From NCBI GenBank assembly GCA_964016885.1, contig OZ024740.1:382478001-382542000 (forward strand): a DNA stretch of 64,000 bases, read 5' to 3'. Position 1 is the first letter of the stretch. Each line of letters starts with the position of its first letter. Of this stretch, positions 13,969 to 51,194 are shown piece after piece. The stretch comes from Eledone cirrhosa. Taxonomy: Eukaryota. The notes beneath the pieces were generated by a model, which was given only the letters and a program-made list of their open reading frames with translations, was not told the DNA's origin and did not search any database. The translations under genes and the position numbers were made by a program.

Positions 13969-14235
13969 TAGGAACGAGTAGGACCCCGACGGCTGAGCTC
14001 AAGCCGTTTCGACGGCTAATTGTGGACTAGATGAAAATGTTTATAAACATTTTCATTTCTGGATTAAATGAAAATGTTTATGAACATTTTCATTTAGTCC
14101 AGAATTAGCCGTCGAAACGGCTTGAGCTCAGCCGTCGGGGTCCTACTCGTTCCTATTACCCACTCTACTACCCTAAGTATGGAGTACTTTGGTGCGTTAT
14201 GATCCACCTGGTTGCTTACCACATTTCCTTCGTTA
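13969..14235 (+). mobile_element. Fold-back PLE-type element, family A (3' half of a hammerhead, one-sided tail), in (TA)n
   Basis: Inverted arms span 13969-14155. GAAA-CGGCT-TGAGCTC-AGCCG-TC-GGGGTCC at 14114-14143. Tail 14156-14235 has GAGTACT. Related copies at 29380, 29626 and 31507. Confidence 0.8.
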
Positions 14236-14308
14236 TATATATATATATATATATATATAAAATAAAGTTAAATAAAAGTCAAATGATTAAAATTTAGCTT
14301 CGTTTATT

Positions 14309-14363
14309 ACTGCTATATATATTTCAGTGACAGCCATCTTTGGCTGTGACCTCTTCAGGCAGT
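14309..14363 (-). ncRNA. Minimal type I hammerhead ribozyme motif (intact stem II)
   Basis: Minus strand: ACTGC CTGAAGA GGTCACAGCC-AAAGAT-GGCTGTCACT GAAA TATATA TA GCAGT, then AATAAA. Confidence 0.85.
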
Positions 14364-14593
14364 TTGAATTAGTATGGTATAGACAAGTACATATGTTGTT
14401 TAGGTGTATAATATTGTCAATACTCTGATATGCCCAGTTCCTTGTTGGGTTGTTAATTCACTGAGGAACTGGAGTCATATGACTCCAGTTCCTCAGTGAA
14501 TTAACAACCCAACAAGGAACTGGGCATATCAGAGTATTGACAATATTATACACCTAAACAACATATGTACTTGTCTATACCATACTAATTCAA

Positions 14594-14644
14594 ACTGCCT
14601 GAAGAGGTCACAAAGATGGCTGTCACTGAAATATATATAGCAGT
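14594..14644 (+). ncRNA. Minimal type I hammerhead ribozyme motif (4-nt deletion in stem II)
   Basis: actgc CTGAAGA ggtcacaaagatggctgtcact GAAA tatata TA gcagt aataaa. Confidence 0.78.
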
Positions 14645-15277
14645 AATAAACGAAGCTAAATTTTAATCATTTGACTTTTATTTTACTTTATTTTACACTA
14701 CTCCGGAGTAACCAAACCAACCTGCGCACTTCGTCGAGTGCTCCAGCCTGCATACTGAGGTGTTGGTATACAACCAACATAAACTCAAAATCTATATATA
14801 TATATATATATATATATATATATATACATACAAATTTTAGTACAGCATTAACGAAGCTTTACTTTGCGTCCAAGCTAACGAATGCAAATTCGGTCTGTAG
14901 CTTTACCACTGGGATGGGGAAAACTACCCCAGAATAATAACAATACGTTTAGACAGCTTAGCAAATCAAATATAGCGATTGGCCATTCAGCCGCATCACC
15001 AGAGCAACAAAAGTACACAACTCAGGAAAAGATTATATATATATATATAAGGGAACAAAGGATCAGCGTTGCATCATATACATATTTAATTACATATTGC
15101 ATATGTTTTCTGTTGATGAGCTCGAGGAACGATCGTTTAATGATCGATACCTATATATATGTCTCCGTACAAGTCGACCCCTGGTTTTGGAGCGATATTT
15201 TTAGGCTCCAAATATCAACTTGTACGCGGGCATATACGGTATATATACATATCTATATTTATTTACAGATATAGATA

Positions 15278-15960
15278 CGAAGGTGGGCTGAAATCTTGAT
15301 AGTTTGGCATTGATTGATTCCAGGTAAACTGATATGTGACTGTTCATAGAAGACTTCAAATGTAAGTAGTAGCGATTTATTGAAAATTGACAAAATTTGG
15401 CATCGTTGTGTTATCAAGTACCTGTAGAAAATAGGTTTAGCCCCCAAGGATATTCATGCTTACTTAGTTGCTACATTAGGGGATGACGCAACAGATTTAT
15501 CAAGAGTGCAAAAGTACGCAGCTGAATTTAGGAGGGGAAGGTCGATTCTGGAAGATGAACCTAGGTCTGGACGTCCTGTAACTGCCACCACCGAGGAAAA
15601 CATTGATCATTTTCACCACATGATGTCGCATGACAGGCGATTGACTATAAACCAAATAGCCAATGCTATTATCATATCCCTTGAGAGAGTTGGCAATAAT
15701 CTGAACAATGAACACCTGACATATATTTAGGCACATACAGCTGGTTTCCTTCAATATTACATGACACAGAATGCGCGCAGGTTTCGTAACTTTCAGTCAG
15801 AGATAAAGAGACAATACATTCAATGGAAACACCCCTCTTTCCCTGCTTTAAAGGCCAAATTCGTTTCGTCTGTTGCATAGGTGATTGTCTCACATTTATT
15901 TGGATGTAATAGGCATTGCGTTTTAGGACTATCCCCCAAAGAGCCACACCATCAATCGTG
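15278..15960 (+). mobile_element. Mariner transposon relic (transposase N-terminal HTH), decayed
   Basis: TA-CGAAGGTGGGCTGAAA TIR-like start. Peptide VQKYAAEFRRGRSILEDEPRSGRPVTATTEENID...DRRLTINQIA is a typical mariner DNA-binding region. The right end is approximate. Confidence 0.85.
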
Positions 15961-16564
15961 CGTATAAGCCCCTTGAACGAAAAAACGATGGGCATCAGCC
16001 CACATGGGTTTCGAATCCACACTTCTTAATCGCCAGCAAACACAAGTGTGTTACTATTATGCTATTTTATTTAGTTTAAAGTTAGGGCGAAATCTTCTAA
16101 TTTAATATATATATATATATATATTTCTTTCTCCTTTTTCTCTTGGTTTCATTCATGACTCTCGTGCTATAAGCAGCACCACACTTTTTCTCTGACGTCA
16201 CATATAATTCTATGCGTACTTGCTGTAGCTTTATTGCTATTAATTAATGCTTTCTCTATCAGCATTTACTACACTGGAAAGCGTTTGGCTTTAGGCAGAC
16301 GCTCTGACCCAGTGTAGGACAGTAGTAACATTGGTAGTGGTCGAGACCTTCCTTTGTATTTTTATTTTCTTTGAAATCATTTTTAAAGGTTTTCTTCTTA
16401 AACAACTGTTTTTCGTTCGTTGTCTTATTATTTTTCTGAAGTTTATACACATACACACACACACACACACACACGCACACGCACACGCACACGCGCACGC
16501 ACACACACACACGCGCGCGCACATGCATATATATATATATATATATATATATATATATATATAT

Positions 16565-17220
16565 AGAGTTATAAACTCAAACAGTCTTTTACAATAAATT
16601 AGCTCAAAAAAAGAAGTATTTCTGAGCCGTGAGTTGATATAAATTAATATATATGATAAACACTAATACAATCATATAAGTGTTTGTATTGTAAATAACC
16701 AAGTTAGCTAGATTGAAAAATATTAATTAGATTAATACAGTTTGCCTGTCTCGATTTAAAATAATAAATCAATATATAGTATAAATATATAGTATAACGG
16801 CTCCTTTTGTTGAGCTAAATTTTAGTCCTGTTATTTCTAGCAGCACGAGTATGGGGTAGAAACCATGTGCGTCGATCAGTCCTCCTAATTATTTTGAGGT
16901 TAAACATACCAATTGTTCTGGGTACTTGCTGATGAGAACAGAAGATGGAACTTTTCACTTTTTCAATTATCGAAACTTATTTGGGTTTTGAAGTTTAAAC
17001 TTATCTACAGAACAGGTTTGGATTTTGAAATTTAAATTTGTCCAAGTACCACGGCTATTGCCAATATGGGTTGTTTTTATTGATTTATTATTTTAAATCG
17101 AGACAGGCAAAGTGTATTAATCTAATTAGTATTTTTCAATCTAGCTAACTTGGTCATTTACAATACAAACACTTATATGATTGTATTAGTGTTTATCATA
17201 TATATTAATTTATATTAACT
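16565..17220 (+). mobile_element. HHR-bearing element with ~140-bp inverted repeats, in (TA)n
   Basis: IR 16632-16774 / 17078-17220 with an internal HHR at 16921-17050. Flanked by (TA)n on both sides. Confidence 0.8.
16921..17050 (+). ncRNA. Type I hammerhead motif with long G.U-rich stem III and GUC cleavage triplet
   Basis: Stem I GGTACTTG/CAAGTACC; CTGATGA 16929-16935; GAAA 16972-16975; stem III 16976-17002 / 17014-17040; GTC 17040-17042. The base of stem II is imperfect. Confidence 0.75.
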
Positions 17221-49566: not shown

Positions 49567-49856
49567 CAATGATATTAAATAAATGGAAACTATATTTATA
49601 AAACCATATTTATTCTATTATATATATTTCAAGAGTACCAAAATCTTTGGTACGCTTTCATCAGATAAAAGCGTACCATTTGATGAAAGCGTACCAAAGT
49701 TTTTGGTAACCTTGAAATATAGTTTATAAATATAGTTTCCATTTATTTAATATCATTGAATATATACTCCAGAAAACTTGTCGAGTGCTGTGAATCAGTT
49801 ATAAACATTTATATTTGTTGAATTACCAACAAATTGAATATCGCTTCTGCTTATAT
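49567..49856 (+). mobile_element. Palindromic PLE-type element, family G (copy 1), with HHR
   Basis: IR 49567-49758; minus-strand HHR at about 49612-49670; tail with TCGAGTGCT. Confidence 0.85.
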
Positions 49857-49859
49857 CAC

Positions 49860-50040
49860 CATGACCGACCAGTCTGTCGGGTGGGCAGACCGGTACTCAT
49901 TTCTACAGCTGAGTAAACTGGAGCAACGTGAAATAAAGTGTCTTGCTCAAGGAAACAACACATCACCCGGTCCGAGAATTGATCTCACATCCTTTCGAAT
50001 GCAAGCCCAATGCTCTAACCACTAAGCCATGCGCCTTCCC
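49860..50040 (-). mobile_element. tRNA-derived SINE family 2 (CORE-like)
   Basis: Minus strand: tRNA-like head (tggcttagtggttagagc) then ccttgagcaagacactttatttcacgttgctccag. Confidence 0.8.
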
Positions 50041-50187
50041 TTCTGATTTTATACACACACACACACACACACACACACACACACACGCACACACACAGAC
50101 GCACACATACGCACACACACAGACACACACACACACACACATACAATGATATTAAATAAATGGAAACTATATTTATAAAACCATATT

Positions 50188-50251
50188 TATTTTATTATAT
50201 ATATTTCAAGGGTACCAAGACAACATTGGTACGCTTTCATCAGATAAAATA
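50188..50251 (-). ncRNA. Minimal type I hammerhead ribozyme motif
   Basis: Mirror image of 50396-50459. Confidence 0.85.
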
Positions 50252-50395
50252 CAAAGTTTGTTTTATAAATAGAGACATTCCCATGAAAATCATACACTAT
50301 CGGTTGGAAATTCACTGGATAGTGACTATCCAGTGATTTCCAACCGATAAGGTGTGATTTTCATGGGTATGTCTCTATCTATAAAACAAACTTTG

Positions 50396-50459
50396 TATTT
50401 TATCTGATGAAAGCGTACCAATGTTGTCTTGGTACCCTTGAAATATATATAATAAAATA
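50396..50459 (+). ncRNA. Minimal type I hammerhead ribozyme motif
   Basis: TATTTTAT CTGATGA AAG-C-GTACCA-atgttgtct-TGGTAC-C-CTT GAAA TATATA TA ATAAAATA. Confidence 0.87.
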
Positions 50460-51194
50460 AATATGGGTTTATAAATATAGTTTCTATTAATTTAATATCA
50501 TTGAATATTTACTCCAGTAATTTGTTGAGTGCTCCAAATCAGTTATAAACATTTGTATTTGTCAGACTTCCAACAAATTAAACACCACTTCTACTTATAT
50601 ACATATATATATGAGAGAGTATTGTTGGTTGCTTGAAGCATTGTGGAATAATAATTTTGTTTTTGTTTTTGTTTGGAAGCCTCAACAATGCAGATGGGTA
50701 AATCTCCGTGTAACAGAATCCGGTGGTGAAGAAAGAGAATGTAGAATGAGATATATAGTGTGTAGAGGAACGTAGGAAAGAGCGTAAAAAAATAAAAATA
50801 ATAACACGAGATATAGTTACCTTGGAGAGATTTAATTGTCCCTATATTTTGGAAACTGGGGGTTTTCCGGGTGGAGGGAGGGTGTTATCTGTCGGAGAGG
50901 AACGGTACGTGGCCTCTGTTGTCAACTGTTTGTGTGTAATTGAGGTATTCTGTAGAGCACACGTGCGCGCGGAATAGGTGCGGTTAAGCAAATGTCAAAG
51001 CAGCTCCTTTTTATTGTGGGAGTGGTATGGCGTTAGCTGTCAATTCATTGTACTACCTTTATGTACTGGTCTTTGGTACTAGCAGTGTAGTAGTCTGTCT
51101 GGTCGCTTGTTGTTCGGTGGATGGTGGGGGCGCTAAAGAAACAATAACAATCGTTCGAATGCCAGTGTGTGTGTGCGTGTGCTGACTCGTTTGT

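Follow-up and report, generated by a model that had tools for sequence, protein, structure and literature searches.

A twin bulged stem ahead of the open reading frame of Hydra-clade Penelope-like elements is a putative marker of internal reverse-transcription starts

The window analyzed here is a stretch of 64,000 nucleotides (nt) from the genome of Eledone cirrhosa (assembly GCA_964016885.1, contig OZ024740.1, positions 382,478,001 to 382,542,000 of the forward strand). Most of the elements that concern us in it are short head-to-head insertions in (TA)n with predicted minimal type I hammerhead motifs. An initial annotation of the window drew attention to the heptamer GAGTRCT, which recurs in the 3' tails of these elements downstream of an ACTC-like arm with which it can pair. 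All nine sites that it listed are present on the strand given, with the low coordinate quoted for minus-strand sites, and the box begins about 46-70 nt before the element end, in keeping with the earlier figure of 40-67. The upstream arm proved less uniform. ACTC is found at 14162, 14700, 21170, 22510, 49766 and 50511; the family A copies at 29492 and 31551 read ACTT, and from the fragment at 29753 the 5' arm is missing. A further site, 61244 (-), had been offered as a possible element tail, which it does not appear to be: the ACTC arm is absent, and the closest hammerhead-like core (61363) lies on the opposite strand. A compensated GCTC/GAGC variant at 22990-22942 (-) had been overlooked.

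The heptamer forms part of a predicted bulged RNA stem with the consensus NCUC-Y…R-UN-GAGN-RCU, the box usually being GAGCACU. As part of this predicted stem, GAGTRCT is the local A-U variant of GCUC/GAGC-ACU, for which the common box is GAGCACT, and the outer pair can be G-C, A-U or U-A. In eight families of this genome, two such stems precede an open reading frame (ORF) of the type found in the Hydra clade of Penelope-like elements (PLEs). The order along the element is hammerhead, stem 1, spacer, stem 2 and start codon, with stem 2 usually 12-32 nt before the start codon. We conclude that the twin stem is a real, clade-wide cis-element, and that its function as a marker for reverse transcription is putative. 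The copies in the window are the following.

13968..14236, + strand: family A head-to-head insertion in (TA)n (locus L001); the left inverted arm stops 5 nt before stem 1, and the right arm holds the tail and stops 3 nt before the stem 2 position of tandem copies
14162..14188, + strand: family A stem 1; ACTC, three inner pairs, a 2-nt bulge (TG in this copy), GAGT-ACT
14258..14795, + strand: family B head-to-head insertion, the 3' end of a Hydra element with an ORF of 892 amino acids (aa; locus L212); the inverted arm stops 4 nt before stem 1 and the direct arm 3 nt before stem 2
14594..14645, + strand: predicted minimal type I hammerhead motif of family B, with the core of the mirror copy at 14358 on the minus strand
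14700..14742, + strand: family B stem 1; long loop, TC bulge, GAGT-GCT
21092..21514, - strand: family D head-to-head insertion; the inverted arm stops 4 nt before stem 1
21143..21170, - strand: family D stem 1; a single inner pair (U-A), TT bulge, GAGT-GCT
22458..22510, - strand: stem 1 of the 22418 element (family E); the bulge is GC here and TC in most relatives, and tandem relatives have stem 2 and a Hydra-type ORF start
22908..23128 (approximate ends), - strand: family F head-to-head insertion, absent from the earlier list; the family runs into a Hydra-type ORF
22942..22990, - strand: family F stem 1; compensated outer pair GCTC/GAGC, then CCT
29472..29498, + strand: stem 1 of a family A copy, 5' arm changed to ACTT
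29753..29759, + strand: GAGTACT box of a family A tail fragment without a 5' arm
31551..31577, - strand: stem 1 of a family A copy, 5' arm changed to ACTT
49766..49789, + strand: stem 1 of a family G copy
50397..50460, + strand: predicted minimal type I hammerhead motif of family G, with a mirror core at 50243 on the minus strand
50511..50533, + strand: family G stem 1, in a head-to-head insertion spanning about 50143-50600; stem 2 and a Hydra-type ORF are present in tandem relatives

Families A, B, D, G and the 22418 element had been thought to share nothing beyond the hammerhead core and the motif. For four of the five this view has to be given up: A, B, G and the 22418 element run into Hydra-clade ORFs, and we identify them from their sequences as the 3' ends of Hydra-clade PLEs. 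Family D yielded no ORF link (30 D loci were without an ORF, and a junction pattern search found nothing). The defining features of the clade, as given in the available text of Craig et al. 2021 (PMC8557442), include RWK, DKT, CxCX5C, CxxC and CxH motifs and the lack of CCHH. Family B, once extended, has an 892-aa ORF with all five motifs as well as a C-terminal GIY-YIG endonuclease that, read by eye, has no CCHH. A pattern search for the RWK motif matched 307 places, and the 30 that were fetched belong to families B, H1, H3 and H4; the P0001 search matched family B only. Hydra-type ORFs also follow families A, G, F and E. The N-terminal motif is RWK in B, H1, H3 and H4 and RWR in A, G, F and E. 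DKT replaces DKG without exception in the seven aligned proteins (A, B, E, F, G, H1 and H3). The CxCX5C linker, and CxxC and CxH around a conserved E and N, are seen in family B and in the protein of locus L145, which runs into a family F end. A predicted hammerhead close to the 3' end (with core variants in A and F) and insertion in (TA)n are also as in Hydra elements. In all, our elements and the clade of PMC8557442 have in common RWK or RWR, DKT, the CxCX5C linker, CxxC, CxH and the hammerhead, as well as (TA)n targets, partial tandems, an inverted 5' copy and a one-sided tail. Size is the exception. Hydra elements are generally shorter than 3 kb, which PMC8557442 states as a tendency, and here the tandem period of family A is about 3.54 kb, while family B joins its ORF to a 3' region of about 1.3 kb.

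The second stem came to light in tandem units, in which a further stem lies just beyond the usual 3' end and ahead of the start codon. For families A, G, F and E, stem 2 was predicted beforehand, and the loci were searched with a pattern made of the family end plus CTC, the downstream box being left out. The box followed the match in 22 of 30 loci for A, 7 of 19 for G, 13 of 15 for F and 4 of 7 for E. Loci that miss it mostly have microsatellite flanks or single changes.

To look beyond this genome, we picked 78 metagenome loci by protein alone, by means of an alignment of seven proteins; 57 of them reach the N-terminus and 52 have a leader of at least 100 nt. The motif lies within 130 nt of the start codon in 46 of the 52, compared with 2 in antisense, 0 in coding sequence and a mean of 0.5 (maximum 4 in 200) in shuffled controls. 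These loci fall into 35 clusters at 70% identity, with a median pairwise identity of 47%. Where the leader reaches 150 nt or more (29 clusters), two stems are present in 17 clusters, one in 9 and none in 3, at a spacing of 55-83 nt. From the CTC and GAG anchors we parsed 49 instances, with inner pairs not required and pairs counted by script. The pairing is conserved: inner pairs covary, and changes in the outer pair are compensated. Inner pair 1 is formed in 48 of 49 instances (33 C-G, 14 U-A, 1 U-G), against 38.6 when partners are shuffled, inner pair 2 in 34 of 47 (19.7 shuffled) and inner pair 3 in 21 of 31 (12.2 shuffled). The bulge begins with U in 47 of 49, ACT follows the box in 47, and the pair preceding the bulge is formed in 48, once as U-G. 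The initial annotation had also called for a comparison with PLE consensus sequences from other phyla, and for the six Hydra consensus sequences the outcome is mixed. By eye, clear stems are present in three (one coral and two sea-cucumber elements, with two stem copies in Hydra-1_Ajap), and the copepod Hydra-1_Crog has a near-perfect match with one mismatch; the other two are considered below. These stems are visible in the consensus sequences of PMC8557442, yet the available part of its text does not mention them.

Chance, or passive inheritance without selection, has to be weighed against these counts. On its own the heptamer shows only weak enrichment in the window (17 occurrences against 9.6 +/- 3.1, with 17 reached in 3 of 100 shuffles), and copies within a family are not independent, both of which would suit chance. 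The rival is already contradicted by a box that is near-invariant over 35 protein clusters with diverged flanks and compensatory changes, and we regard it as exceedingly improbable. The expected excess over shuffled sequence is also present, with the strict general motif occurring 52 times against 2-13 in 20 block shuffles. We sampled the genome in 80 evenly spaced 10-kb pieces, 800 kb in total. The full hairpin (ACTC, three inner pairs and a 2-nt bulge) accompanies 29 of 194 GAGTRCT sites, and 22 of these 29 also have (TA)n 40-80 nt downstream. Of 1714 GAGTY control sites, 22 have the hairpin and 2 also (TA)n; as many copies come from few families, these counts speak of abundance rather than independence. 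The position and structure of the motif are far beyond chance.

The motif is not a common trait of hammerhead elements, as its first description had implied: in the 800 kb sampled, its ACTC form lies downstream of only 2 of 22 strict hammerheads. Among 29 GIY-YIG loci of Neptune type, scanned to 1250 nt past the endonuclease, it is lacking, the single match being a nested family F (Hydra) junction; the GIY-YIG family search gave mainly Neptune-type elements. These two results rule out a feature general to all hammerhead elements. In the Naiad and Chlamys consensus sequences, none of 17 GAGCACT matches stands in a stem by eye, with line breaks that may conceal others, and no relative was found in viral contigs.

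The stems mark where copies end. In a strict end map of seven families (family E not included), 153 of 166 ends that enter (TA)n are found 2-8 nt to the 5' side of one of the two stems, and they sit at a TA-like step matching the (TA)n target. That interval holds only about 13% of the TA/AT steps present in the references. The span between the two end sites is 55-127 nt, compared with the 30-40 bp tail stated for PLEs in PMC8557442. Among same-family ends in the metagenome loci (n = 19, after 14 of 33 rows had been set aside: 6 cross-family hammerhead hits, 5 ORF hits and 3 query-start artefacts), 10 lie 2-10 nt before a stem and 4 at 11-12 nt. The two end sites also occur together. Where both ends of a head-to-head pair lie at stems, 22 of 23 pairs combine site 1 with site 2, and in family D 14 of 17 inverted arms halt 4 nt before stem 1.

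This distribution bears on whether the stems might instead serve transcription or translation, as a promoter element, an elongation-factor site or an aid to the start codon, with nearby TA microhomology alone setting the ends. The location of stem 2 just ahead of the start codon would suit such a role, and the bulge is similar to that of TAR, a transcription element (Pham et al. 2018, PMC6189040). The leaders are rich in TA/AT steps, yet ends occur almost only at those just before a stem, and the one-of-each pairing of ends is left unexplained. We think this account improbable.

A biochemical precedent exists in another clade. In the anole Poseidon element PAc (Frangieh et al. 2024, PMC11167929, from the portion available), reverse transcription starts at two internal sites that bound the tail, RNA 3' of the start sites is required, both strands are nicked and extended in AT-rich DNA, and a dimer is predicted. 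The two internal starts fit a model in which twin stems specify starts. In PAc these starts lie inside an AC-rich stem-loop within the ORF, and the available text does not define a repeated recognition motif; in contrast, the Hydra elements here have a defined stem beside each site, ahead of the ORF. The same precedent bears on the idea that the RNA is cleaved under the direction of the stems, a few bases 5' of each, so that ordinary end-primed, target-primed reverse transcription would have two RNA 3' ends to copy. A fixed distance from end to stem suits RNA cutting as well as internal priming. PAc, however, primes internally, with unprocessed RNA as the main substrate (PMC11167929), and the stem has no Rfam match: in a scan of the window, 0 of 103 matches at E<=1 reach the gathering score, and there is only sub-threshold microsatellite noise. 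RNA cutting strikes us as a poor prospect.

Several observations weigh against the stems as start markers. A looser end map places 212 of 316 ends within 12 nt of a stem; 83 of the other ends are family F rows, 81 of them in a (TA)-like loop, and we judge these to be artefacts. Five of the 19 metagenome ends are far from a stem. One head-to-head pair joins site 1 to site 1, and one family D inverted arm carries the whole tail, so a two-tailed pair exists; the loci were chosen in part through queries containing site 2. By eye, the consensus of Hydra-1_Obim is without the stem and that of Hydra-1_Amil, the second coral, has a weak one only. Predicted folding is weak, with z from -2.1 to +1.0 across 8 window tails; the outer stem pairs form in the minimum-energy fold of only 2 of the 8, and several stems have a single inner pair. 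The covariation counts ignore relatedness, and the two stems of an element are not independent. Finally, the PAc RNA letters in Fig. S1 of PMC11167929, their order uncertain, contain no such box.

The remaining difficulties are best seen through the main rival, in which the stems are read as DNA. Here cDNA (complementary DNA) from site 2 would snap back, and an endonuclease or roadblock at stem 1 would stop or cut the strand, making site 1 a resolution site rather than a start. Most head-to-head arms break off at almost identical points, and some junctions have additional small palindromes, as expected from snap-back self-priming, which has been proposed for PLE inverted repeats (PMC3846280, in the part available). 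Counts of G-U against A-C do not separate the RNA from the cDNA strand, so wobble pairs do not decide the matter. In 4 of 20 pairs, however, the 5' reach of the site-1 arm exceeds that of the site-2 arm, and in two of the four the arms do not overlap. Such a site-1 arm cannot have had the site-2 arm as its template, and these cases fit two separate primings, even if later deletion could mimic them. Moreover, the stem and its spacing are alike at both sites, and stem 2, being absent from cDNA begun at site 2, could not act as cDNA. We consider snap-back unlikely on balance.

Taken together, the conserved pairing and the positions of copy ends lead us to favor the stems as start markers: each is probably a protein-bound marker for an internal start of reverse transcription a few bases to its 5' side. 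The RT-endonuclease of the element (RT, reverse transcriptase) would bind each stem as RNA and nick (TA)n, and the nicked 3' end would anneal to the UA immediately 5' of the stem, where the cDNA would begin. A start at site 2 would copy stem 1 and the spacer, which make up the "tail", and a start at site 1 would leave them out. Use of both sites, one per target strand and probably by a dimer, would yield a head-to-head copy with a one-sided tail. Because a start at site 2 would never copy stem 2, this stem would be kept only in tandem and full-length units. The complete scheme of programmed twin priming, with a telomerase-like RT dimer, two identical TAR-like stems and one cDNA per nicked strand, is possible, and we place it slightly short of an even chance. 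The original proposal of a cis-element for RT and endonuclease recognition or priming is supported by covariation and copy ends; the role in transcription start suggested alongside it is unsupported.

More speculatively, the invariant bulge U with its G-C and A-U pairs may form an arginine-binding pocket of TAR/7SK type. In the arginine sandwich of TAR and 7SK SL1, as described in the available part of PMC6189040, a paired purine is followed by a bulge U, with an A-U pair two positions further, and the predicted bulge here has the register of A39, U40-U41 and A43-U66 in 7SK. As in the sandwich, a bulge pyrimidine follows a predicted Watson-Crick pair; the loop is on the opposite side of the bulge, and kinship is not implied. 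Arginines R37, R199, R352, R442, R488 and R490 (numbered in L317), located in the RWK helix and before WFNPP, are invariant in the protein. Their combination with a sandwich-like bulge may be taken as a lead only. A structure model of a metagenome ORF, that of L317 with 707 aa (pLDDT, the predicted local distance difference test score, of 90.6) has its best matches among TERT structures (E 1.7e-9, template-modeling score 0.34), which is expected of a PLE.

In R2 and telomerase, a structured part of the enzyme's own RNA sets the template register for the RT. R2 begins at the 3' end of its RNA, and the template that telomerase copies is short and bounded. The Hydra RT proposed here would be similar in reading structured RNA of its own for template register. 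To our knowledge, neither R2 nor telomerase uses two like stems for two starts.

Other features of these families and of the window were recorded along the way. The family A hammerhead (L263 leader; window 14090-14150, +) has a U3-A8 core variant and a long stem II, and the window copies are broken off inside stem II, leaving half of the core missing. At the family A junction (window 14030-14100) there are two extra small palindromes, as from repeated fold-back synthesis. Family A also forms head-to-tail arrays (G000:C1:91476611-91487265 and 437200345-437210965) made up of four or more nearly identical units of 3.5 kb that contain long open frames, apparently a sign of recent activity. Family F, which is very abundant, has a hammerhead-like core (window 23062-23056, -; L145:6245-6300) that reads CAGAAGA, not CTGANGA; many of its copies show this core and a long predicted stem III. 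Short tandem units at L248:1311-2035 and L304 consist of the leader, both stems and the first codons only, and could be non-autonomous elements. A family H4 hammerhead fragment (window 30260-30500, -) ends 14-20 nt before stem 1 and hence lacks the motif. Another abundant hammerhead family is motif-free (window 53123, -; L032, L059, L075 and others); its 3' ends fall preferentially at two positions separated by about 60 nt, and the loci examined contain no tandem copy of it. The 3' ends of a Neptune-type family (L111-L138) show a short (TA)n followed by a further conserved piece of about 35 nt, possibly a tail with an internal TA run. Broken copies of a long interspersed nuclear element (LINE) with endonuclease and RT frames, presumably Tx1-like, lie at 117-1380, 33050-36160, 39580-40850 and 43480-47000 of the window.

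The elements belong to a known clade, and the twin stem is apparently undescribed. We found no description of it, or of its link to both ends, in the literature searched, including the available portions of PMC11167929, PMC8557442 and PMC4209133; the stem is likewise not described in those of PMC3846280, PMC7229834, PMC5737381, PMC13282606 and a 2026 retrozyme preprint. How PLEs recognize their RNA, why the tail is one-sided and why copies so often land head to head are open questions in the PLE literature available to us. A motif of 20-30 nt, conserved across animal phyla and at a fixed distance from both ends, lets all three be tested using short RNAs and a single protein of 700 aa. The twin stem can also serve to annotate Hydra elements and to locate their true ends. 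If twin priming is true, it would account for both the tail and the inverted repeat of PLEs and would constitute a sequence-defined, movable start signal for internal reverse transcription. Should the stem prove movable, RT-based DNA writing would gain a compact start signal.

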